Source: Candidatus Xenobia bacterium (GTDB lineage: Bacteria; Vulcanimicrobiota; Xenobia; Xenobiales; QWHO01). Taken from it: a stretch of DNA of 62,278 bases. Of this stretch, positions 903 through 17,343 are shown piece by piece (the first letter of the stretch is position 1; each line of letters opens with the position of its first letter). The notes under the pieces are model-generated. The model saw only the letters and a program-made list of their open reading frames with translations, did no database searches and was not told the origin of the DNA. Location: assembly GCA_045863235.1 (NCBI GenBank), contig BTUM01000047.1:1-62278 (forward strand). The letters run 5' to 3'. The translations under genes and the position numbers were made by a program.

Positions 903-932
903 TTGACGACCCGGGGGGTCGTCTAGTATGAT
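903..932 (+). promoter_or_regulatory. Putative sigma70 promoter with an inverted repeat across -35 and the spacer
   Basis: TTGACG (903-908), 18 nt, TATGAT (927-932); GACGACCC-GGG-GGGTCGTC palindrome at 905-923. Confidence 0.55.
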
Positions 933-1100
933 GCCGAAGTGCCTCGTGTCTTGAGGCGCATCAGGACCAAAACAGATGATTTTCTTCGAACAAAACATAG
1001 CGGTCACCGAACGGTCGGGAAAACGTCCGTACGGTAGCCTTGACCCCCGGGAGGGCGCGCTGAGAGCATAGTGCTCATCACAGCATATGCTTGCCAGCAC

Positions 1101-1135
1101 GCCCACCTGCAACCACCAGGTGGGCTTTTTGTTTC
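1101..1135 (+). terminator. Intrinsic terminator-like hairpin in the leader (possible attenuator)
   Basis: GCCCACCTG-caaccac-CAGGTGGGC followed by TTTTTGTTTC. Confidence 0.65.
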
Positions 1136-1143
1136 GGTTTGAC

Positions 1144-1511
<368 letters not shown>

Positions 1512-1761
1512 GAGCTTCGTCAGCGGCGAAGCTCAGGACGGCTCGACCCGACCCCCGACTTGCCCCGGGGCGGGTCGCCGTCGGACTGGCGGTCACCGGG
1601 GAAACCGGGTCTCCCCCCGGTGACCGCGCCGGTCCCCTCAAATGAGGACCCCGCTCGCAGGCTCGCGCGCTTGCGGGCGGGGCATCAACAACGTTTGCAT
1701 CAGGAGTCGGCGCATTCTTGCAGCACGTTCCTCGGAACGGCCAGGCTCCCAGGTTGTGTAG

Positions 1762-3432
<1,671 letters not shown>

Positions 3433-3715
3433 ACCGACCTCGCGGGCGCGCCGTTCCCTCCACGGCGGCGCGCCCGCACCGGGGTCCCGGCCCGGCGGCT
3501 CACCCCCGTCGGGCGGCGCACCGGGGGGCCAGACACGTCATGTGGTCGGGACTGGCAAACTCTGGCCAGTCCCTGGTCCTCCGTCCCCGGCGACAAAGCT
3601 ACTTCCAGGTCTCTGGTCTGGCTGCTTCTTGCAGCCAGACCCTTTCTGGTAGCTACGAACTGCAGGAGCGCCCCCGGAACCGTCCGAATGGTTCCTTTTC
3701 AATCCGGGAGGAAAC

Positions 3716-5047
3716 GTGCAGCGCCGTAGAGACTTCTTGAAACTTCTGGCTGGTTCGATGGGGGGACTCCTTCTCAGCTCGTGCGGTGACTCGGGCGGCA
3801 CCGACAACCTGGGGGGGATCGGGAGCGGTCCCAACGGATACCGCTTCTTCTCGCTGTTCGACAGCGGCAGCGTGCTGCCCGATGGGCGCACCCTCGAATC
3901 GCTGCCCGGCCAGGTGCTGCTCAACGGCGCCGGTCAGGTGCTCTTCTTCGGGCAGACCGCCCAGGGGATGGGCCTGTACGAGCTCATCCCCGATTACCCC
4001 GCCATCCTGCGCGAGAACCGGGGCATCCTGCTTGGCGCGCGCAAGCTCCTGGCCCGCGGCGACACGCTGAGCGATGGCTCCAGGCTCCTGGGCCTGGGCG
4101 CGGTGGCCAGCAACTCCAGGGGCAACAAGGCCATCGTGGTGCGCACCGATCAGAAAAAGCGCAATCTCCTCTTTGAGCCCTCGGGGGGCGAAGCGGGCGT
4201 GGTGGCCACCTTCCGCACCCCGATCCCCGAGTCGGGGATTCGCTTCGGGGGCACCTTCGGCGACATCGATCTCAACGACCAGGATGGTCTGCTGGTGGTC
4301 GACCACTACACCCGCCAGGGGGAAGTCCGCCCTCACCAGGGGCTGTTTTTTCTCCAGCAGGCCCGGGTCGACGCCAACACGCGACTCTTGCAGTCCTCAC
4401 GCGACCTCTTGCCGGATGCCGAAGGCACCGTGAGCAATATCGGCCTGGTCGACCTCAACTCGAACGGGAGCTACGTGGCCCAGGTGGGCGGTCCGGCTCC
4501 CCTGCCTCTGAGCCGCGGCAGCCTGCCGCCTCAGGGCTTGCTCCTGGGCTCCGTGGAGGACGGGCTGGCCAGTCGTCTGCTGGTTGCTCCCCCCAGTTTT
4601 CGGGTTTCGGCCCGGACCACATCGGACAAGTTCGCGCCGGGCTCGCTCATCTTCGGGCCCCGACTGGCAGATCAGAGCGACACCGTGGCCCATATCGTGC
4701 ACCATACCCAGACCCAGCAGGCGCTGTTCCTCAATTCCCAGCAGGTGGCCCAGGTGGGCGACCGCAGTCCGGGAGGCAGCACCATTCGAGGCTTCTCGGC
4801 TCCGGTGCTGAGCCCCGATGGTGTGCTCTACGGGATCGTCATCACCGACCAGGGCCACGAGCTGATCCGACTGTCGGCCGGCGGCCCGGTCCTGCTGCTG
4901 GCTCGAGGAGACACAGTGCAGGGGAAGGTGGTCAACTCGGTGGTCCACGGTTTCCATTCCGATCAGGCCGACCAGCTCGGTCGGCTGGTCTTCGTGGGCG
5001 AATTCATGGACGGCTCCAGCGCGGTCATGCTGGGCCTTCCCATCTAG
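3716..5047 (+). CDS. Tat-exported lipoprotein, beta-rich repeat (propeller-like)
   Basis: N-terminus RRRDFLK followed by lipobox LSSC; repeated LARGD/VAQVG..P.G motifs; GGAGG RBS. Confidence 0.75.
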   Translation: MQRRRDFLKLLAGSMGGLLLSSCGDSGGTDNLGGIGSGPNGYRFFSLFDSGSVLPDGRTLESLPGQVLLNGAGQVLFFGQTAQGMGLYELIPDYPAILRENRGILLGARKLLARGDTLSDGSRLLGLGAVASNSRGNKAIVVRTDQKKRNLLFEPSGGEAGVVATFRTPIPESGIRFGGTFGDIDLNDQDGLLVVDHYTRQGEVRPHQGLFFLQQARVDANTRLLQSSRDLLPDAEGTVSNIGLVDLNSNGSYVAQVGGPAPLPLSRGSLPPQGLLLGSVEDGLASRLLVAPPSFRVSARTTSDKFAPGSLIFGPRLADQSDTVAHIVHHTQTQQALFLNSQQVAQVGDRSPGGSTIRGFSAPVLSPDGVLYGIVITDQGHELIRLSAGGPVLLLARGDTVQGKVVNSVVHGFHSDQADQLGRLVFVGEFMDGSSAVMLGLPI

Positions 5048-5056
5048 GAGGCAAGC

Positions 5057-6148
5057 GTGGCCGTCACAAACTTTCCCACAACCCTGTTGGCTACCTCTCA
5101 GCCCCTGAACCTGTGTAGCCCCGACTCCATCCCCTACTTTCCGGCCGGGGCCATCGACATTGGAGTGAGCAGCTCGGGCAGCATCTTCTCGGTCGACCCC
5201 ACCATCCTGGTGTGGAACTTTGACGTCAGTGCGGGCTGGTTCTTCTTTGCCGGGATGTGCGGGCCGTCCATTGCGCTGCAGTTCAATCTGGCCGGGTCCT
5301 ACGACGGGAGCAGTCTGACTGCCACCCTCAACGGGGACCAGATTCAGGGGGGCTTCCTGTTTGGCCTCACGGCCGGAGTCGACCTGAATTTCGCCATCAG
5401 CGAGGCCAGCCTGGTCTGGGTCAAGGACGGCTGGCACAGCCACCTGGAGACGGTCTGGAACAGCAAGTTCAGCACCACGCTCAACATCCAGTTCGACATG
5501 ATCGGGATCATCTTGACCATCGTGCTCAAGATTCTGGAGGAGGACGGCCAGACCAACACGCTCCTTCAGAAAGTGAACGACATCAACCCCAACCTGCTGG
5601 CCTCCTACGGATTGTTCGACGAGGTCACCAATGGCTTCGTGGAGACAGGCGACTTCTCGGTAAGACCAGGATTCAGCCTGCCCATCAACTTCGTGGAGTT
5701 CATCCCCGGGCTGTCAGAGATCAACGAGGCGCTAGAAGCTCTGGCCGGCGGTCTCTTCATCGGGCCGACCATCGGGATCACCATCCCGGCCCAGGTCAAC
5801 CTGACCGACATCCAGGTGGGCGGCCAGAACTACTCCAACCTCCAGATCAGCGGCTCCACGGTGAGCGGCACGTCGACCGGCCCGGCCGGAGGAGGCTCTA
5901 CCCTGGAGGTGGGCCTGACACGCACGCCCGGCCTGGATTTCACCCTGGGCATCGGCGCCAACATCTCGATCTGCAAGATCTTCAGCCTGGGCGGCTCTTA
6001 CTCGGTGGACATCCTCGAGCTGCTGGGCATCCAGATCGACCTGGGCACCTTCCCCACCAGCCTGAGCAATACGGTGGGCTCCACCACTCTGGCCGAGGGT
6101 AAGGCTTTTCAGCTTGCCGAGGTCATCCTGGAGGTCCCTGCAGCTTAG
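5057..6148 (+). CDS. Hypothetical beta-rich protein (363 aa)
   Basis: AGGAGG RBS, GTG start, strong coding bias; rich in G/S/T/I. Confidence 0.75.
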   Translation: MAVTNFPTTLLATSQPLNLCSPDSIPYFPAGAIDIGVSSSGSIFSVDPTILVWNFDVSAGWFFFAGMCGPSIALQFNLAGSYDGSSLTATLNGDQIQGGFLFGLTAGVDLNFAISEASLVWVKDGWHSHLETVWNSKFSTTLNIQFDMIGIILTIVLKILEEDGQTNTLLQKVNDINPNLLASYGLFDEVTNGFVETGDFSVRPGFSLPINFVEFIPGLSEINEALEALAGGLFIGPTIGITIPAQVNLTDIQVGGQNYSNLQISGSTVSGTSTGPAGGGSTLEVGLTRTPGLDFTLGIGANISICKIFSLGGSYSVDILELLGIQIDLGTFPTSLSNTVGSTTLAEGKAFQLAEVILEVPAA

Positions 6149-6207
6149 CCCCTTTTGCCTGGCAAGCGTTGACCGGGTGGAAGGGGAATATCCCTCCAAC
6201 TGGATTC

Positions 6208-8334
6208 ATGCGAAACGCCTGCATCGACGTGGCCTGGTCCAAGGGCCGAGAGCGGATTCCGTTCGAGGTCGCCGACATCGGCGATCTGTCCAGCGATTTC
6301 GAGGTCAAGCGGGCGGTGCGCACCCACCTCGGCGAGCGCTGCCCTGACCTGACCGATTATGCCGTGCTGCGAGTCAGCCCCAGCCGCTACTACCTGCGGG
6401 TTCCGCTGACGCTGCGGTTGCGCAGGGCGATTCAACGGCTGGATGCCTGGTGCGCTGGCAGGGTCGGTCCCGAAAGCGCTCTGGAAGCCTGGCTGCGCCA
6501 GCGCTTGCGACCTCTCGGCCTGTTCCTCCAGCAGCGGGTGCTCGTCCCCCTGGGCCACCTGGCCGGACTCTTGCTGTCGCTGCTCTGGAGACTGGTGCTC
6601 AAGCCCCTGGGACGCCTGGTCGGGCTCTTGCTATCGCTGCTCTGGAGAATGGTGCTCAAGCCCCTGGGCCGCCTGGTCGGGGCCTTGCTGACGGCGCTCA
6701 AGCCCCTGGGAGGTCTGGTAGGCTTGCTTGGGCGAGCAGGTGCCGGCCTGGACCGGCTGTGGGCCGTCACGGTACGCCTGGTCCGCGCAGCCATGGGGGC
6801 CCTGGGCAAACCGCTTTCCACCCCCCGGATGCGCCGCCTGCGCCGCCGCCTGGGGGCTCGGCTCGAGCTGCTCGGCGCCTGGGTCTTCGGCGTGGTGGAG
6901 CGAGTCCTGACCGGCCAGACGGCCGAGGAGCGCGAGCGAGACCACCGCCTGCGCCTGCTCGAGTCGCTGCTGACGACGCCCCACCGGCGCCTGGACCGGC
7001 TGGCAGGACTGCACGAGCAGATGTCCGCCCAGGACATCCTCTTCTACGTGCACCTGGCAGCCTGGTATCAGAGGCACGGCCAGGTGCGCGATCACCAGGA
7101 GCTGTTCGCCGTGCAGCTCTTGCTCCACCCCACCTACCGGGACGTGGGGCTGGCCCTGCTGCGCGAGCTGCCGCCCTATCAGCTGGCCCGCATCCTGACC
7201 GAGATCAAGCGCCGGGGCAGGAACGTGCCTCGTTCGCTGCGCACCGAGGTGGAGCGCTACCTGCGCCGGCGCGAAGCCGACCCGGCCGCCTTCGACGGGG
7301 CCGTGCTGACAGCCCGCAAGGCCCTCAAGCAACTCTACACCAGCCTGCACATTCGGCCCGGCCCCAGGGCCCAGGCCATCTTGTTCGAGGACCGCCCGCC
7401 CGCGGACAGCCGCCTGTTTGCCCTGCGCGAGCTGGCCCGCGAGCGCGATCCCGAGCGCCAGGCGGCGCTGGTACGTCAGCACCGGCTGCCCTACAAGGTG
7501 GCCGCCGGGCTCCTGGTGCGTCACGAAGCCACCGCGCTGGCGCTGGTGGAGCAGATGAGCCCGGCTGAGCTGCTCAACCACATGGGCACCCTGAAGAAGA
7601 ACGGCTGGCTGGCCCACGAGAGCGTCGCCGAGCGGGTGCGCTCGGCCCTGGAGCAGGCCGGCTCCAACCGGCGCGTGAGCGCCCTGAAGGTGGAGAAGGC
7701 CGCCCGCGCCGCCGGGGAGGACTGGCAGGGACTGCTCGACCGCATCCTGCAGCAGCGGTTGCAGCGCAATACGGGCTGGATCACGCGCTCCACCGCCCTG
7801 CTGGTGGACGCTTCTGCCTCCATGGAGCCGGCCCTGGAGCTGGGCAAGCGCCTGGCCTCGATGGTGGCGGCCGTGGCCCGAGGGCCTCTGGCCGTCTACA
7901 CCTTTGCCCGCGAGAGCTCGCCCGTCGAGCCCGAAAGGCGCGACTACGCCGGCTGGGCGGCCGCCTTCGAGAGCCTCGAGGCTCGGGGCCAGAGCTCGAT
8001 GGGAGCAGCCCTGCTGACCCTCTACAAGAGCCCCCGGGTCTTCGACCAGGTGATCCTGGTCAGCGATCAGCGAGAGAACCAGTCGCCCCGCTTTCTGCCG
8101 TCGCTGCGCCTGCTGCGCCGACGCAACCGCTGGCTGAGCTTCTGCTTCGTCAACCTCGACCAGAGCGTGCACCTGCTCGAGGCCGACTGCCGGCGGCTGA
8201 AAATGGACGTCCAGAGCTTCAACTTCCAGGGCGACTACTATGCCCTGCCGAACCTGCTGCCGTTTCTGGCCCAGCCCTCGCGGGTGGCCACATTGATGGA
8301 GATTCTGGATACGCCCCTACCGGGACGTGGCTGA
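6208..8334 (+). CDS. Second Ro60/TROVE-like vWA paralog with N-terminal Ubl-like domain and amphipathic repeat linker
   Basis: From [18 protein letters not shown] onward it aligns with 1996..3432 to the end (FQGDYYALPNLLP vs [13 protein letters not shown]); MIDAS LLVDASASM; start uncertain (TTG 6169 or ATG 6208). Confidence 0.75.
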   Translation: MRNACIDVAWSKGRERIPFEVADIGDLSSDFEVKRAVRTHLGERCPDLTDYAVLRVSPSRYYLRVPLTLRLRRAIQRLDAWCAGRVGPESALEAWLRQRLRPLGLFLQQRVLVPLGHLAGLLLSLLWRLVLKPLGRLVGLLLSLLWRMVLKPLGRLVGALLTALKPLGGLVGLLGRAGAGLDRLWAVTVRLVRAAMGALGKPLSTPRMRRLRRRLGARLELLGAWVFGVVERVLTGQTAEERERDHRLRLLESLLTTPHRRLDRLAGLHEQMSAQDILFYVHLAAWYQRHGQVRDHQELFAVQLLLHPTYRDVGLALLRELPPYQLARILTEIKRRGRNVPRSLRTEVERYLRRREADPAAFDGAVLTARKALKQLYTSLHIRPGPRAQAILFEDRPPADSRLFALRELARERDPERQAALVRQHRLPYKVAAGLLVRHEATALALVEQMSPAELLNHMGTLKKNGWLAHESVAERVRSALEQAGSNRRVSALKVEKAARAAGEDWQGLLDRILQQRLQRNTGWITRSTALLVDASASMEPALELGKRLASMVAAVARGPLAVYTFARESSPVEPERRDYAGWAAAFESLEARGQSSMGAALLTLYKSPRVFDQVILVSDQRENQSPRFLPSLRLLRRRNRWLSFCFVNLDQSVHLLEADCRRLKMDVQSFNFQGDYYALPNLLPFLAQPSRVATLMEILDTPLPGRG
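6568..6681 (+). repeat. 57-bp tandem direct repeat (2 copies plus degenerate flanks) encoding LLLSLLWRxVLKPLGRLVG
   Basis: 6568-6624 and 6625-6681 are near-identical. Confidence 0.85.
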
Positions 8335-8355
8335 GGGGACGGAGAAGCTGGGAGG

Positions 8356-9183
8356 ATGACCGACGTCCGCAAGCTGATCGCCCGTCTGAGCGCAGCCGAG
8401 CAGAATCTGACCCGCTTTCTGGCCCCTTGCCTGCCGGGAGGACGGGTGCGAACGCGCGTGCAGGGACTGGTGTGCGAGTTCGAGCCTCCGGCTGGCTTCG
8501 AGGGCTGGGGAGTGTTCGCCCCGGAGGGACGGGCCGCCCGCCTGCTCGAGCCGGCCGACCCCATCGCCGTCAGCGAGTATCTGGCCCTCTTTCCGGCCAT
8601 GCGCGTGCGCCTGATCCACCCGGTTGCGGGACGCTCCTGGCTGGCCTACCCGGTCAACGAGAGCGATGCGCGCCAGCGCCTCGGCCAGGCGCGCCCCCTG
8701 GTGGTTCACCTGGTGGACGAGGGGGCCCGCCTGGAGGTGGCCGTAGCTCGCCTGGAGGGCGGCGCGCTCTGGTTCGATCAGCTCGACCGCAAGGCTGACC
8801 CGCTGGAGGCGGCCGTCCTGAACGAATCGTTGGAGTCCGAAGTGTTGCCCGAGCATCTGAGCGGCAAAGGCCTCACGCCCGAGATGCGGATCGCTTACGA
8901 GCTGGCCGCCTCCCAGGAGAGCTTCTTTCAGGAGACCCTGCGCCTCAGAAACGAGCACGAGCGGCTGCGCCAGGCCTTACGGGTGGGAGGCGGCAACCTG
9001 CGCAGCTACATCGACCGGGGCGATCACTGGGTGGTGGAATGGACCGATGGCCAGGGCCAGCGCCACAGCTCGGCCATCGGCAAGGCCGATCTGACCGTGC
9101 TCAGCGCCGGCATCTGCCTGGCGGGAGAGGACCAGCGCTTCGACCTGCAGTCGCTGGTGGGCGTGGTGGAGGGCAACTGGTGA
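8356..9183 (+). CDS. Hypothetical protein, candidate E2-like component (C-terminal SAGICL motif)
   Basis: GGGAGG RBS; stop overlaps the ThiF start (GTGA). The E2 role is inferred from motif and context only. Confidence 0.65.
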   Translation: MTDVRKLIARLSAAEQNLTRFLAPCLPGGRVRTRVQGLVCEFEPPAGFEGWGVFAPEGRAARLLEPADPIAVSEYLALFPAMRVRLIHPVAGRSWLAYPVNESDARQRLGQARPLVVHLVDEGARLEVAVARLEGGALWFDQLDRKADPLEAAVLNESLESEVLPEHLSGKGLTPEMRIAYELAASQESFFQETLRLRNEHERLRQALRVGGGNLRSYIDRGDHWVVEWTDGQGQRHSSAIGKADLTVLSAGICLAGEDQRFDLQSLVGVVEGNW

Positions 9184-9821
9184 GCGAGTTCTTCCTGCAC
9201 GAAAGACTGGCCCGCTCAGAAAAAACCCTGCAGCGACTTTCTCGCTGCCGCATCACCGTGTGCGGGGCCGGGGCCCTGGGGGCCAACCTGTGCGAGACCC
9301 TGGCCCGAACCGGGGCTGGCACCCTGCGAGTGATCGACAAAGACCGCATCGAGCCCCACAACCTGTCCACTCAGCCCTACTTCAAGAGCGACGTGGGCTC
9401 GTTCAAGGCCCGTATCCTGGCCCACAACCTCTATCGGGCGCTGGGCACCAAGATAGAGGCCGTACCCGAGGAGCTGACCGCGGCCAGCCTCGACAAGCTG
9501 CTCAAGGACAGCGAGCTGGTGGTGGACACCTTCGACAACTCGGTCTCCCGCCAGCTGGTCAGCGACTGGTGCCGCCAGCGTGAGGTACCCTGTCTTCACG
9601 CCGGGCTGGCGGCGGGCTTCGCCGAAGTGCTTTGGAACGAGGTCTACCGGGTTCCTTCCCCGGCCGCGGGACAGGACGACTGCAACTACCCTCTGGCTCG
9701 CAACCTGGTCATGCTGACGGTGGCGGTGACCGCGGAGGTCATCCTCACCTGGCTGGGGCGGGACCAGCAGGCAAACTACACCATCACGCTGGACGACCTG
9801 GCCGTCCGGCCGTTTCGCTGA
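9180..9821 (+). CDS. ThiF/MoeB/E1-family adenylyltransferase
   Basis: ITVCGAGALGAN, IDKDRIEPHNLSTQ, VVDTFDN motifs; candidate catalytic Cys in DDCNYP; no CxxC zinc pairs. Confidence 0.9.
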   Translation: MSEFFLHERLARSEKTLQRLSRCRITVCGAGALGANLCETLARTGAGTLRVIDKDRIEPHNLSTQPYFKSDVGSFKARILAHNLYRALGTKIEAVPEELTAASLDKLLKDSELVVDTFDNSVSRQLVSDWCRQREVPCLHAGLAAGFAEVLWNEVYRVPSPAAGQDDCNYPLARNLVMLTVAVTAEVILTWLGRDQQANYTITLDDLAVRPFR

Positions 9822-11636: not shown

Positions 11637-12961
11637 TTCTTCACCTCCGGCACCACGGTCAGCTCTACCCGGCGACCGGTGGGCAAGAAGCTGCGCACCA
11701 CCGCGGCCAGGTCGCTGGCCCGCACGGCCCGGTAGCGGTTGAGGTCCAGGGCGAAGTAGTCGGGGTTGCCGGTAGCCACGTAGTATCCGTTCAGCATGTC
11801 GGCCTTTCCCCCGAACCCGCTCAGCTGCTCCAGGCTGGCCAGGAAAGTGGCTTCCAGTCCGTTGCGAGCCCGATCGAGCTCGCGCTGCGACACCAGCTCT
11901 GTGCGCAGGCGCTCGAGCTCTTCGTCCACCACCCGTTTGAGCTCTTCGGTGGTGTGTCCCGGACGAGGGGTCAGCACGATGTGGAACGTGCTGGCCAGCC
12001 GCGAGGAGGCCTGGTAGGCCGAGACCTCCTGGGCCACCTGCAGGTCGTAGACCAGCCGCTTGTAGAGTCGCGAGTTCTTGCCGCCGGCCAGAATCTGAGC
12101 CACCAGGTCCAGCTCGGCATCGCCCGGAGCGTAGTGGGGAGGGGTGATCCAGGCGATGTCCAGGCGAGGCAGCTGCACCTTGTCCTGGATGGTCTTGCGC
12201 ACGACTCTCGTAAGCTCGGCCGGCGGCGGCGCCACCGGCAGCACGGGCTGGCCCGGCTTGATGGGGCCGAACCACTTCGTCACCAGCGCCCGGGCCTGGA
12301 GCGGGTCGATGTCGCCGGCGATGACCAGGCTGGCATTGTTGGGCACGTAGTAGCGCTTGAAAAAGTCAGCCACGTCCTTGTGGGTGGCCGCGTTCAGGTC
12401 GGCCATGTAGCCGATGGTGGGCCAGTGGTAGGGGTGGCCAGGAGGGAAGGTCAGCTCGTCCACGATGATCGAGGCCATGCCGTAGGGCACGTTGGCGTAG
12501 CTCTGGCGCAGCTCGTTCTTGACCACCTCGCGCTGGCCGTTGACCCGCTCCGCCGTCATGGTGTCGAGCAGCCAGCCCATCCGGTCAGACTCGAGAAAGA
12601 GGGCCAGCTCAAGGGCATTGGAGGGGACTGTGATCCAGTAGTTGGTGCGGTCCGAGGTGGTGGAGCCGTTGTTGTCGCCCCCCACGGCTTCGAGCAGGTT
12701 ATCGAAATCGCCCTCGGGCACGTTCTTGCTCCCTTCGAACATCAGGTGCTCGAACAGGTGGGCAAAGCCGGTGCGCTTGGGCTTCTCATTGGCCGAACCC
12801 ACGTGGTACCAGAGATTGACGCTGACGATGGGCAGGCTGTGGTCTTCGTGGAGGATCACGTGCAGCCCGTTGGGCAGGTCGAACTCGGTATAGGGCACCG
12901 ATTGGGCCCGGGCCGGAAGCAGCAGGAAGAGGAGGCACAGAAGGGCGGAGAGCGATCGCAT
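11633..12961 (-). CDS. M16 family zinc peptidase, catalytic subunit
   Basis: LPNGLHVILHED, TGFAHLFEHLMF (HxxEH); signal peptide. Confidence 0.92.
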   Translation of the reverse strand: MRSLSALLCLLFLLLPARAQSVPYTEFDLPNGLHVILHEDHSLPIVSVNLWYHVGSANEKPKRTGFAHLFEHLMFEGSKNVPEGDFDNLLEAVGGDNNGSTTSDRTNYWITVPSNALELALFLESDRMGWLLDTMTAERVNGQREVVKNELRQSYANVPYGMASIIVDELTFPPGHPYHWPTIGYMADLNAATHKDVADFFKRYYVPNNASLVIAGDIDPLQARALVTKWFGPIKPGQPVLPVAPPPAELTRVVRKTIQDKVQLPRLDIAWITPPHYAPGDAELDLVAQILAGGKNSRLYKRLVYDLQVAQEVSAYQASSRLASTFHIVLTPRPGHTTEELKRVVDEELERLRTELVSQRELDRARNGLEATFLASLEQLSGFGGKADMLNGYYVATGNPDYFALDLNRYRAVRASDLAAVVRSFLPTGRRVELTVVPEVKK

Positions 12962-13595: not shown

Positions 13596-14476
13596 TCTAC
13601 CGCTACGCCTGGGCCTCCATCGCAGCCGCTCTGGCAACCGTGGGGATGAAGCTGGGCGCCTACTGGGTGACCGGTTCGGTGGGCCTGCTTTCGGATGCGC
13701 TCGAGTCGGTGGTCAACCTGGTGGCCGCCACGCTGGCTCTGGGCATGCTGTGGTGGGCAGAGCAGCCAGCCGACGAGGGCCATCCCTTCGGGCACGCCAA
13801 GGCGGAGTATTTCTCCAGCGGGGTCGAGGGGGCCCTGATCGTGTTGGCGGCCGTCGGCATCGGGAGCGCGGCCCTCCCGCGACTGTTTGCCCCCCAGCCG
13901 CTCGAGTCGCTGGGGCTGGGCCTGGCCCTGGCCGGTGGCGCCTCACTCGTCAACCTGGGAGTGGCCCTGTTCCTGCTCAAGGCCGGCAGAAAGCACAACT
14001 CCATCGCCCTGGAGGCCGACGCCCACCACCTGCTGACCGACGTGTGGACCTCGGTAGGGGTGGTGGGCGGTATCCTCCTGGTGTGGCTGACAGGCTGGCT
14101 CTGGCTGGACCCGGCCCTGGCCCTGGCGGTGGCCTTCCATATCGTCTGGACCGGGGTGCAGCTGGTCAAGCGCTCGACCCAGGGCTTGATGGACGCCGCC
14201 ATCCCCAAAGCCGAGCAGGAGGCCATCGAGCAAGTGCTGGAGGGCTACCGCCAGCAGGGGCTCGACTTCCACGCCCTGCGCACCCGCCGCGCCGGCTCGC
14301 GCTCCTTCGTCTCCCTGCACGTGCTGGTGCCCGGATCGTGGACGGTGCAGCGCGGCCACGAGTTGCTCGAGCAAGTCGAGCGTGACCTGCGGGCGGTCTC
14401 GCCGACCAAAGTCAGCGTGCTGACCCACCTCGAGCCTCTGGAGGACCCGGCCTCGTTTCGCGACGAGCAGCTCTAG
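13592..14476 (+). CDS. Cation diffusion facilitator family transporter
   Basis: [44 protein letters not shown]. Confidence 0.92.
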
Positions 14477-14496
14477 AGAGGCGCGGCCGCGTGTTG

Positions 14497-15477
14497 TCAG
14501 GACTCGAGTTGGAGGTCGAGCTGGAGCACCTCCACCCACTGCTCAGGCGGAAAAGAGAGGCTGTCTCGCCCTGCCTGCCAGGCGCGCACCGCCTCGCGGA
14601 AGGCGGGCGATCCCGGCTCGTTCCAGAGCTCCAGAACCCGCTGCAGGGCGGCCCGGGCCGCCTGCGGGTCGCCCACACCCGAAGGGGCGGCCTGACGGGC
14701 GTAATCGTGCACCCGGCGAGCCAGAGCCCCGTCTCTTGGCTGGGACTGGCGGGGAGATGCGGGGCGTTCCTCGTTCACGGCCAGCCCCTGGGACTTGATG
14801 TAGGCTAGAGCGTCCCGGTAGCGGTCGGCGGGATGGGGGTGGGTGGGAAAGATGTCCAGACCCGGGCTCCGGGCGGCGATCTGCTGGAACAGCTCCAGGG
14901 TGGTCAGCGCACCCCGCGGGTCGTAACCGGCACGGGCCATCAACTCCATCCCCCGCCGGTCCGCTTCGGCCTCCATGCCCCGCGAATAGCCCGACACCAG
15001 TACGTTGTTGGTGACATTGGCCAGCAATTGAAGCCACTCCTGGCTGCCCTGGGTCAGCAAGCCCAACAGCAGGCTCGTCATGCCGGCGTTGCGGGCCAGG
15101 CGCCCGAGGTGATCGCGCTCGAGGTGGGCGATCTCATGGGCGGCCACGAAAGCCACCGCGTCCTCGTCTCCGGAAGGCAACCTGTTGAGCAGTCCGGTCA
15201 AAAACACCACCTGCCCGTCCGGCAGAGCGTAGGCGTTGACCGTGTCATCCTCCTGCACCACCGAGACCCGATACTGGATGTCCCTGCGCTCGGTAACCTC
15301 GACAATGCGGTAGAAGATGGTGGACACGAAAGAATGGGGATCGAGTGCAGTGGGCTCGCCATACTCGCGGCGAATCTGGTCGCGGATCTCGTCCGAGCTC
15401 TCCTCGCGTTGCTCCGGGCTGAGTTGCGCCTGGCCAACCGTGGTGAGCATCAGCAGGCAAAGGATCAAACGTCTCAT
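14497..15477 (-). CDS. M48 family metalloprotease
   Basis: VNAYALPDG, HEIAH, YSRGMEAEAD, AGYDP, THP. Confidence 0.9.
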   Translation of the reverse strand: MRRLILCLLMLTTVGQAQLSPEQREESSDEIRDQIRREYGEPTALDPHSFVSTIFYRIVEVTERRDIQYRVSVVQEDDTVNAYALPDGQVVFLTGLLNRLPSGDEDAVAFVAAHEIAHLERDHLGRLARNAGMTSLLLGLLTQGSQEWLQLLANVTNNVLVSGYSRGMEAEADRRGMELMARAGYDPRGALTTLELFQQIAARSPGLDIFPTHPHPADRYRDALAYIKSQGLAVNEERPASPRQSQPRDGALARRVHDYARQAAPSGVGDPQAARAALQRVLELWNEPGSPAFREAVRAWQAGRDSLSFPPEQWVEVLQLDLQLES

Positions 15478-15496
15478 GAAGATGACTTCTCCGGCC

Positions 15497-16816
15497 TCAG
15501 TGCAACACCCGCTTTCTGATCCGGTCAGCGTACTCGGCCACCCGGTCGAGCAGGCCCTCGAGTTGGATGCTCAGCACCTGGCGCTCCTCCATCACCACCC
15601 GTCCGTCGATCACCACCGTGCGTACGTCGCTAGCCCGCGTGGTATAGGCCAGGGTGGAGGCGACGTCATAGACCGGCAGTTGGTGGGCCCCGTCCAGGGA
15701 GACGATGATCAGGTCAGCCTTCTTGCCCACCTCCAGGGTGCCCACCTCGTGTCCCAGAGAGACGGCCCGGGCTCCCAGGCTGGTGGCCATCTGTAGAGCC
15801 TGGCCGGCGGGCAGGGCGGTGGGGTCGAGCGCGGTCACCTTCTGCAAGAAGATGGCCGTCTGCAGCTCCTGCCAGGGATCGAGGTCGTTGTTGGAGGCCG
15901 GCCCATCGGTGCCCAGGCCCACGGCCACCCCTGCTCTGAGCAGGGCCAGCACGGGAGCCACACCCGAGGCCAGCTTCATGTTGGAATGGGGACAGTGGGC
16001 CACACCCACCCTGGCCCGGGCCAGCCGGGCGATGTCGGCCTCATCGGCCCAGACCACGTGGGCAGCCAGCGTTCGTGGGCCAAAAAAGCCGATGCTTTCG
16101 AGGTAAGCGGTGGGCGAGAGCCCCTGGTGGTCGCGGGCCATCTGCTCGGTCTCGGTGCGGGTCTCGGCCAGGTGGGTCATGAGGGGCAGTTCGAGCTCGT
16201 CGGCCAGTTGGCGGCTTTGGCGCAAATGGGCCTCACAGACCGTGTAAGGGGCATGGGGGGCCACCGCCGGGGTGATCAGAGGATGGCCCTTCCAGTCGCG
16301 GGCGAAGGCGCGGACGTTGGCCACGCCCTCTTCGAAGCTCCTGGCGTCAGGCACGGGAAAGTCCACCAGAGCCTGGCCCAGCACGCCGCGCAGGCCGGCG
16401 GCGGCAAACTCCTCGGCCACGGTGCTCTCGAAGTAGTACATGTCGGCCACCGTGGTGATGCCAGCCTGGATCATCTCCAGGCAGGCGAGCCGGCTGCCCC
16501 AGCGCACGAACTCCTGGTTGACCTCGGCGGCCTCAGCCGGAAAGATGTAGTTCTGCAGCCAGTCCATCAGAGCGCGATCGTTGGCCAGTCCCCGAAAGAG
16601 CGTCATAGGGGCGTGGCAGTGGGCGTTCACCAGTCCGGGCAGCACCGCTCGGCCGGTGGCGTCGATCACGTTATGGGCCTGGTACTGCTCTGCCTCCGGC
16701 CCCACTGCCGCGATGCGCTGGCCAACCACCGCCACCGAGACGCCCTCGAGCACCTGACCGGGCTCGACCATGGGCATGACGCGCCCGTTTCGAATGAGGA
16801 GATCGCAAGACTTCAT
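15497..16816 (-). CDS. Amidohydrolase (MTA/SAH deaminase-like)
   Basis: PGLVNAHCH, HLAET, HCPHSNMKLASG, LGTDGPASNN. Confidence 0.88.
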   Translation of the reverse strand: MKSCDLLIRNGRVMPMVEPGQVLEGVSVAVVGQRIAAVGPEAEQYQAHNVIDATGRAVLPGLVNAHCHAPMTLFRGLANDRALMDWLQNYIFPAEAAEVNQEFVRWGSRLACLEMIQAGITTVADMYYFESTVAEEFAAAGLRGVLGQALVDFPVPDARSFEEGVANVRAFARDWKGHPLITPAVAPHAPYTVCEAHLRQSRQLADELELPLMTHLAETRTETEQMARDHQGLSPTAYLESIGFFGPRTLAAHVVWADEADIARLARARVGVAHCPHSNMKLASGVAPVLALLRAGVAVGLGTDGPASNNDLDPWQELQTAIFLQKVTALDPTALPAGQALQMATSLGARAVSLGHEVGTLEVGKKADLIIVSLDGAHQLPVYDVASTLAYTTRASDVRTVVIDGRVVMEERQVLSIQLEGLLDRVAEYADRIRKRVLH

Positions 16817-17343
16817 GGGGAAACCTCACCCTCCGCCAGAATTGCTTCTGCCCCGCGCCAGGCCCGCACAGCCGCGGGCAGCTCGGGAGTCTCGCTCACG
16901 CCAATGGCCCCGGCCAGCTCTTGCACCGGCACCAGCCCCTCCCGAGCCACGAATCCGGCCTTCACCAGCGCCAGGGCCGCAGTTCGACCGCGCGACTCGA
17001 GACGATGCTCGATGTACACCCAGCGCTCGTCCCAGCCCAACACGCGCGTGTGCAAGGTGAATGGATCCCACAACTTCAAGGCACGCCGAAAGCGCACCTG
17101 AGCCGACACGATCACCGGAGCCCATCGCCGTTGCAGCGCGATGCGCCAGAGCCCGGAGCGCACCATCAGGTCGAGCCGGCCCAGGTCCATGAAGGTCAGA
17201 TACCGGCCGTTGTTGACGTGGCCCATCAGGTCCAGGTCGGGCGGCCAGACCCGCAAAGCAAGGGTGGAGTCCTCCAGGGGCCGAATGCGGGGCCGAAACA
17301 GGCTCAAGCCCAATACCCAGAGCATGCGCAGCCAGAGATTCAC
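16813..17343 (-). CDS. Thioesterase family (hot-dog fold) protein
   Basis: RVWPPDLDLMGHVNNGRYLTFMDLGR. Confidence 0.88.
   Translation of the reverse strand: MNLWLRMLWVLGLSLFRPRIRPLEDSTLALRVWPPDLDLMGHVNNGRYLTFMDLGRLDLMVRSGLWRIALQRRWAPVIVSAQVRFRRALKLWDPFTLHTRVLGWDERWVYIEHRLESRGRTAALALVKAGFVAREGLVPVQELAGAIGVSETPELPAAVRAWRGAEAILAEGEVSP

Follow-up and report, generated by a model that had tools for sequence, protein, structure and literature searches.

Bacterial Ro60 proteins (Rsr) combine the Ro60 fold with a vWA domain, and their small RNAs, YrlA, YrlB or Yrn1, are encoded a few kilobases away on the same strand; the 5' motif through which YrlA is bound by Rsr has been defined as GNCGAAN0-1G (available text of PMC4201824). 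Bacterial ubiquitin-like (Ubl) conjugation systems, namely Bil (BilABCD), Bub (6E/DUF6527) and the operon types 6a-6e, unite a small Gly-ended protein, an E1-like enzyme and a second protein with a conserved cysteine, with a JAB peptidase in some versions and with Ubl fusions that need processing (available text of PMC11601596 and PMC1779556). We describe here a locus that has features of both, at positions 903 to 9821 of a 62,278-nucleotide stretch of a contig of a Candidatus Xenobia bacterium (BTUM01000047.1); this whole stretch of DNA is called the window below. The locus encodes a divergent Ro60, Y-like RNAs, a small Gly-ended protein, a cysteine protein that we call X and a ThiF/E1 enzyme.

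The likeness to Rsr systems extends to the RNAs, one class of which has a permuted T-acceptor-D module that matches YrlA below threshold, with a YUAY-like motif before the tRNA module (available text of PMC4201824). However, the present Ro clade is unmatched by Pfam TROVE and 13-18% identical to solved Ro60 proteins, and its partner genes are the Ubl, X and E1, RtcB not being among the recurrent neighbours scanned. The RNAs have a different closing stem that lacks GNCGAA, form arrays of up to 8 and carry normal-order tRNA, partial tRNA or 23S rRNA cargo. Thermus phage phiLo provides a phage-borne Ro60 counterpart (PDB 9l5y, by title). Compared with Bil and Bub as they appear in the available text, the E1 is a bare 213-residue adenylation domain that has a cysteine and no JAB fusion, whereas BubCD lacks the cysteine and BilD is organized as IAD-AAD-CYS. 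X has OB folds and no UBC match, and the system is linked to a ribonucleoprotein (RNP) and is common in phages. The words 'vWA' and 'TROVE' are absent from the main text of PMC11601596 and PMC1779556. With ThiS/ThiF and MoaD/MoeB, the locus shares a ThiF-family adenylation domain and a terminal Gly; unlike those pairs, it has an E1 that scores below equivalog cut-offs and lacks the zinc CxxC, a small protein with a [YF]G end and without a ThiS profile match, and no pathway genes.

Arrays of tRNA genes are described in the Anabaena trn operon (PMC10272220) and in archaeal clusters with TROVE genes (PMC6333295), and Nidhogg Asgard viruses carry both Ro60 and ThiF genes, with no link drawn between them (10.1101/2021.07.29.454249). 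In the available text of these sources, Ro60, RNA, Ubl and E1 are not joined as one system. We found no description of a Ro60/Y-RNA particle coupled to Ubl chemistry in the literature covered, from which supplements and some reviews were left out. The system is real, conserved and apparently undescribed.

A conserved cassette around a divergent Ro60

A first-pass annotation had listed two RNAs, a 66-residue protein ending in RPEAVYG, two vWA paralogs, a GICL protein and a ThiF protein in one co-oriented locus. All of these parts are found, and all system genes and RNAs lie on the + strand within 903..9821:

1151..1262, + strand: RNA1, a Y-like RNA with the family closing stem and a tRNA-fragment cargo
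1311..1511, + strand: 66-residue small protein, C-terminus RPEAVYG with an invariant terminal Gly
1794..1920, + strand: RNA2, a Y-like RNA with the family closing stem and a cargo in permuted order
1996..3432, + strand: RoA, a vWA protein and divergent Ro60/TROVE by profile and structure model
6208..8334, + strand: RoB, a lineage-specific paralog of RoA
8356..9183, + strand: X, a 275-residue protein with a GICL motif
9180..9821, + strand: stand-alone ThiF/E1 adenylation enzyme of 213 residues (PF00899, E = 5e-31)

The GTG start of the E1 gene overlaps the TGA stop of the X gene. The closest named relatives, at 86-95% RoA identity, are assemblies labelled Eremiobacterota/Vulcanimicrobiota or Burkholderiales.

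RoA relatives were found at 168 genome loci, of which we surveyed the best 80 together with at most 8 kb of each flank. The small protein is present in 66 of them, X in 56 and E1 in 53. All four genes occur together in 48 loci, every one of which also has the RNA motif, and the motif itself is seen in 76 of the 80. Given these counts, the co-occurrence of the system genes is not due to chance. The first-pass expectation that the parts would recur together is thus borne out, across phyla and in phages: the order small Gly-ended protein, Ro60, X, ThiF/E1 recurs in cyanobacteria, Acidobacteria, Eremiobacterota and viral contigs of up to 595 kb. In cyanobacteria, Ro and X are several kilobases apart, with other genes in the interval. 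When metagenome loci with X are considered (best 80 of 248), 26 are longer than 15 kb; of these, 22 contain E1 and 17 contain Ro, and the counts for the small protein and for the RNA are likewise 17. The viral set comprises 32 loci, or 25 after removal of 7 duplicates; Ro, X and E1 follow one another in that order in 16 of the 25, among them a phage record of 595 kb and contigs 390-470 kb long. Of 61 genomes related to that of the window, 22 encode X. The genome under study has a second, compact operon of the four genes on another contig (C28, ~14156-17141), whose genes overlap and are divergent in sequence and which keeps the Gly and both cysteines.

RoA is a divergent Ro60/TROVE protein, the identity first proposed for it. 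A profile built from 93 RoA sequences matches human Ro60 (E = 2e-17), the TROVE protein of phage phiLo (1e-12), the Ro60 entry 1yvp (2e-12) and Deinococcus Rsr (5e-7). The structure model (predicted local distance difference test, pLDDT, 93.8) shows a HEAT-like helical ring closed by a vWA domain; the first 11 Foldseek rows listed are all Ro60/Rsr/TROVE, with E-values of 1e-12 to 5e-9, and superposition on solved members gives template modelling (TM) scores of 0.61-0.70 over ~500 columns at 13-18% identity. The metal site of the vWA domain (MIDAS; D300, S302, S304 and D386) is invariant in the 93 sequences, leaving DxSxS...D intact. Pfam TROVE matches none of these 93 clade members at E 0.01, and vWA_Ro60 matches 21. 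The lack of a TROVE match may be why the clade, which counts 516 representatives at E <= 1e-30, has gone unannotated. In one member of 901 residues (P0129), the Ro60 appears by eye to be split at the DxSxS motif by an intein-like insert with a homing-endonuclease domain.

RoB is 45% identical to RoA over their shared part. Its first 60 residues weakly resemble the small protein (hhalign E = 0.005; profile hidden Markov model, HMM, E = 0.17; relatives P0128 at 6e-6 and P0151 at 6e-4), forming a degenerate Ubl-like domain without a terminal Gly. This N-terminal part is present in 4 of the 80 genome loci. At residues ~65-235 (window 6400-6900), we observed ~170 residues of hydrophobic and basic repeats resembling LxPLGRL, also seen in P0124, P0128, P0149 and P0151; such repeats may anchor the Ro60 paralog to a membrane. 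Furthermore, a Ubl domain is fused in frame to the N-terminus of four out of 150 Ro representatives (P0133, P0168, P0197 and P0234), and in these fusions the Gly is kept.

The E1 is the only system protein of the window with a clear family, and its assignment to ThiF/E1 was correct from the start. Its GxGxxG, DxD and RxExxNLxxQ motifs and its K and D residues are invariant, CxxC zinc motifs are absent, and it scores below every curated NCBIfam cut-off shown, including those of the ThiF/MoeB equivalogs; PADLOC returns a generic E1 domain match only. A cysteine located 20-34 residues after the HxG strand (Cys168) is conserved in 124 of 127 sequences and is the candidate catalytic residue of the crossover loop; the alignments listed stop short of it.

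The small protein belongs to a family with 1853 matches. Among 106 full-length members, 102 end in [YF]G and four have short tails, and even very divergent phage members retain RPxxxFG. No Pfam or PDB match was obtained, and comparison with 17 ThiS/MoaD-type sequences gave an hhalign score of 13.8, within the range of shuffles; the sole ThiS/MoaD-family match of the genome sits on another contig. By eye, its strand-strand-helix-strand-strand pattern would suit a minimal beta-grasp; two UniRef homologues bear the automated name 'Ubiquitin-like domain-containing protein'. We treat the protein as a predicted Ubl. In viruses, tailed or fused forms go with JAB peptidases (PF14464): a JAB gene is found 3' of Ro in 13 of the 16 viral loci with Ro, X and E1, including all 6 loci with a clearly tailed or fused Ubl, and in the other 3 the Ubl ends in a mature Gly, although numbers are small. 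Six further loci have both a mature Gly end and JAB, and one JAB locus shows no Ubl in view. Two JAB genes are found elsewhere in the genome under study.

X defines a family with 1534 matches and without Pfam, NCBIfam or PADLOC counterpart. In the structure model, two OB-fold domains, which match RNA-binding domains among others, are followed by a helical linker, a domain of one helix and four strands, and the invariant Cys254. All 153 full C-termini keep the motif G-[IM]-C-[LV] with its cysteine, and the Cys domain is the only part still matched in the most divergent phage proteins. The modelled order of helix, four strands and cysteine agrees with that of E2 enzymes, where the active-site Cys comes after the beta-meander and before a helix. 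GICL presumably echoes the 'ICL' motif of E2s; an 'ICL'-type motif is also seen in UQ_con matches. Comparison of X with four bacterial UQ_con proteins gave an hhalign score of 12.1, within controls. X is a predicted thioester carrier in an E2-like role.

A common RNA handle with varied cargo

RNA1 and RNA2 lie 734 and 76 nt upstream of RoA, on the same strand. The closing stem of RNA1 consists of a 7-bp lower stem, an internal loop, an 8-bp upper stem and YUACAYAC, and encloses an anticodon-like arm (UUU triplet), a T arm and a short closed hairpin (folding z = -2.9 versus base shuffles). RNA2 encloses an anticodon-like arm (GCU triplet), a T arm and an acceptor-like hairpin that is loop-closed after CCA, in the permuted order of YrlA (z = -1.4; weak sX4 match at E = 6.3). 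The first-pass annotation had called both RNAs tRNA mimics. The anticodon-like arm, T arm and closed acceptor-like hairpin of each agree with that description; a canonical D arm is missing from both, and neither has an ARAGORN call, an Rfam match at threshold or a YrlA match.

We expressed the family as a pattern: lower stem, CCYRAY loop, upper stem, YUACAYAC, cargo and complementary 3' strand. This retrieved 329 elements from 106 of 193 sources, all 329 of them co-oriented and 298 unique. Three outer stem pairs left unconstrained by the pattern are paired at 93.1%, versus 64.5 +/- 1.2% in 1000 re-dealings, with relatedness uncontrolled in this comparison. With a looser pattern, the handle appears in 12 of the 32 viral loci.

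The cargo is far less uniform. Among the 298 unique elements, 70 contain a permuted tRNA module (T before D), 47 a tRNA in normal order, 83 a T arm only, 16 a D arm only and 82 neither. Permuted relatives match positions 23-85 of YrlA (RF02553) with E-values of 1.6e-5 to 2e-3, although at 32-37 bits they remain below the gathering score of 69; the earlier description of the RNAs as Y-like holds at this level. A second source of cargo is ribosomal: at E < 0.001, a 23S rRNA identified by Rfam is matched by 31 of 292 unique cargos, compared with 0-1 for 20 shuffles. The copies fall in two regions, with 85% identity over 60 nt and 91% over 33 nt, and 18 cargos contain an exact 12-mer that is single-copy in each of those 23S genes. 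We take the copied segments to be the L11-binding/GTPase centre, helix 69 and the sarcin-ricin loop. Examples are found in loci L026 (9883-10085), L042 (~12760-12960) and L084 (~9190-9260), and one such copy is also present in the 595-kb phage.

Anticodon-like loops change fast. When the window is compared to four close relatives, 7 of 14 columns in the 7-nt loops are variable, versus 18 of 227 elsewhere, and the RNA1 triplets in this set are UUU, UAA and GAU. Family-wide, a canonical anticodon arm is present in 74 of 200 T-loop elements, with 27 different triplets. ARAGORN reports some family RNAs as tRNA genes, and public genomes may carry them under that wrong label.

Local signals and neighbouring genes

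Other features of the locus are the following:

903..932, + strand: sigma70-like promoter, 10/12 matches (0.2 expected in shuffles)
939..1135, + strand: structured leader or separate small RNA with a terminator-like hairpin at its end (1101-1125), kept in close relatives only
3615..3641, + strand: terminator-like hairpin 3' of RoA
3716..6148, + strand: two inserted genes, encoding a DUF7453-like protein (3716-5047) and a 363-residue protein (5057-6148)

A perfect 8-bp inverted repeat (905-912/916-923) can be read over the -35 box and spacer of the promoter, and the 905-923 element is a possible operator. The leader region is found at four loci with 87-93% identity over 245 nt, plus one partial match; lying upstream of RNA1, it may act as an attenuator or represent one more small RNA. 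The gene pair at 3716-6148 is a local insertion outside the system: it is found in 2 of the 80 related loci only and is absent from the close relatives L002 and L003. The DUF7453-like protein, a weak match, has a twin-arginine-like N-terminus, and its 363-residue neighbour matches no family. Because of this insertion and of the terminator-like hairpin after RoA, the 903..9821 span is probably not a single transcript. The first-pass picture of one co-oriented locus stands once the insertion is trimmed from the span.

No tRNA array is present in the window. Elsewhere, the flanks of 20 of the 80 genome loci contain 7-40 co-oriented tRNA calls, some of which are family RNAs, and many viral loci are similar. 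In loci L032, L033, L034, L039, L041, L049, L058, L074 and L104, we counted 21-41 tRNA genes adjoining the cassette. Viral contigs L094-L103 and L107 encode more distant Ro60-like proteins, some beside tRNA clusters, with no X or E1 in the DNA examined. We scanned 48 neighbour proteins, the second round taking 28 of the 75 clusters listed. Recurrent neighbours include HNH and GNAT proteins, L7/L12 paralogs, Tpt1/KptA, NADAR, RNA ligase and AAA ATPases. In cyanobacteria, an extra ribosomal protein L7/L12 gene is located among the RNAs upstream of Ro60 (L047, 6613-6996, and 13 other loci). No rhodanese, desulfurase, thiouridylase or other sulfur-transfer family was found among the 48 proteins, nor any recurrent toxic effector save HNH and scattered toxin-antitoxin genes.

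Possible function of the locus

We tentatively favour, at a little under an even chance, a model in which the locus is an RNA-baited Ubl tagging machine, with the RNP as bait or adaptor. The E1 would adenylate the terminal Gly of the small protein, hold it as a thioester on Cys168 and hand it to Cys254 of X. Ro60 would bind the common RNA stem and display the mimics, that is, an anticodon loop, a tRNA elbow or the factor-binding and helix-69 regions of 23S rRNA. Any protein binding or cutting this bait (an anticodon nuclease or another ribotoxin being the most plausible) would come next to charged X and receive the tag, so that the RNP would serve as the E3. In loci with JAB peptidases, these would mature the tag and recycle it. 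Cells may in this way guard translation under toxin stress, and phages may counter RNA-cutting defences of their host. We favour the bait model because a constant handle is joined to varied cargo, because anticodon loops change fast and because the cassette occurs in cells and phages beside spare tRNAs. The sources of the cargo are known target sites of ribotoxins and translation factors. Also in favour are three conserved chemical handles (the small-protein Gly, the E1 Cys in 124/127 and the X Cys in 153/153), the conserved gene order, the JAB pattern, the Ubl-Ro60 fusions, the RNA handle and cargo data and the tRNA arrays.

Confidence differs between the parts of this model. Activation of the Ubl and its transfer from E1 to X is probable, and binding of the RNA handle by this clade's Ro60, suggested by genomic adjacency (76/80 loci), appears highly probable. 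The most ambitious form of the model, in which a Ro60 ring loads interchangeable one-handle RNAs and a minimal E1 with a new kind of Cys carrier tags whichever enzyme takes the bait, is doubtful at present.

Several observations weigh against the bait model. Ro60-RNA binding and a Ro-X contact are predictions, and the model names no target. Among the matches listed, X has no UBC counterpart by Foldseek, VIA, HMM or hhalign, its cysteine tail is modelled with low confidence (pLDDT < 50), and the small protein gave no beta-grasp match. On the RNA side, the YrlA motif GNCGAAN0-1G occurs in only 3 of the 298 unique elements, a different conserved stem taking its place; RNA1 and RNA2 of the window are of the tRNA-fragment type and hold no rRNA copy; no RNA motif was detected at the second operon on C28; and the Fisher p of 1e-4 for the loop comparison overstates the contrast, 2 of the 5 copies being identical over both RNAs. 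A phage-seeded JAB profile matched none of 160 cellular loci. The parts are also separable, since 9 of the 25 viral Ro loci have Ro alone, with neither X nor E1, within the DNA examined. Finally, about 33 of the 80 genome loci come from Microcoleus relatives, so that the counts overstate independence, and many misses lie at contig ends or maybe beyond the flank.

A rival explanation, which we hold to be unlikely, keeps the cascade and makes Ro60 itself (or X) its target, tagging being a switch for the RNP, or a step in its assembly, during RNA damage or translation stress. The RNAs would then act like known Y RNAs, as a gate, a tether or a sensor of RNA cleavage. The natural fusions, in which the Ubl Gly is joined straight to the Ro N-terminus like a ready-made product, speak for it, as do the degenerate Ubl domain of RoB and the recurrence of RNA-repair and translation genes nearby (Tpt1/KptA, RNA ligase, NADAR, L7/L12 paralogs). 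However, the visible fusion locus, L091, has a JAB gene and is equally explained as a precursor, and varying anticodon loops and rRNA cargos are left unexplained. A sensor-effector defence, in which an invader enzyme that cleaves or binds the mimic RNA sets off tagging of phage or host proteins in the manner of Bil-type anti-phage systems, is less probable still. Bil/Bub do offer a parallel to the E1, Cys carrier, Ubl and JAB taken together (available text of PMC11601596), and the distribution among relatives is patchy (X in 22/61 genomes), but many large phages carry an intact cassette, which weakens anti-phage defence, one of two roles suggested in the first-pass annotation, as the main function; PADLOC recognizes the generic E1 domain only, and the neighbour scan revealed no recurrent toxic effector beyond HNH and scattered toxin-antitoxin genes.

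ThiF/MoeB-type enzymes classically serve sulfur carriers, and this role supports another possibility: the small protein may be a sulfur carrier or RNA-modification donor. E1 and X would make a thiocarboxylate, or attach the protein or some group to RNA, such as tRNAs from the neighbouring arrays, and RNA would be bound by the OB folds of X. These two folds match RNA-binding domains among others and tRNA arrays are frequent neighbours; yet no rhodanese, desulfurase or thiouridylase was seen among the neighbours scanned, and the small protein has neither ThiS/MoaD profile similarity nor a GG end. We rate such chemistry as improbable. That the Ro60/RNA and Ubl/X/E1 modules are functionally separate and merely travel together in a translation-stress island is very improbable. 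The distance between Ro and X in cyanobacteria, the terminator and insertion between them in the window and the Ro-only viral loci fit mere co-travel. On the other hand, the Ubl gene adjoins the RNAs and Ro instead of E1, Ubl-Ro fusions exist, the operon on C28 is compact and overlapping, and very divergent phages keep the gene order.

The first-pass annotation had read the locus as an E1-E2-Ubl cascade coupled to a Ro60-like RNP, and this overall picture is partly supported. The terminal Gly and the cysteines of E1 and X are conserved; matches to UBC and beta-grasp folds were not obtained, and the E2 and beta-grasp labels stay unproven.

Whatever the mechanism, these results add an unannotated Ro60 clade, a small-protein family, the X family and an RNA family with modular cargo. 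If the cascade is real, it would represent a Ubl pathway with an RNP as specificity factor and a Cys carrier unrecognisable as a known E2, and would offer a testable explanation for the tRNA mimicry of some Y RNAs and for what is found beside the spare tRNA arrays of cyanobacteria and giant phages. If the RNA-baited model is true, bacteria and giant phages would share a means to disarm ribotoxins and anticodon nucleases, and a swap of RNA cargo would retarget the ligase.

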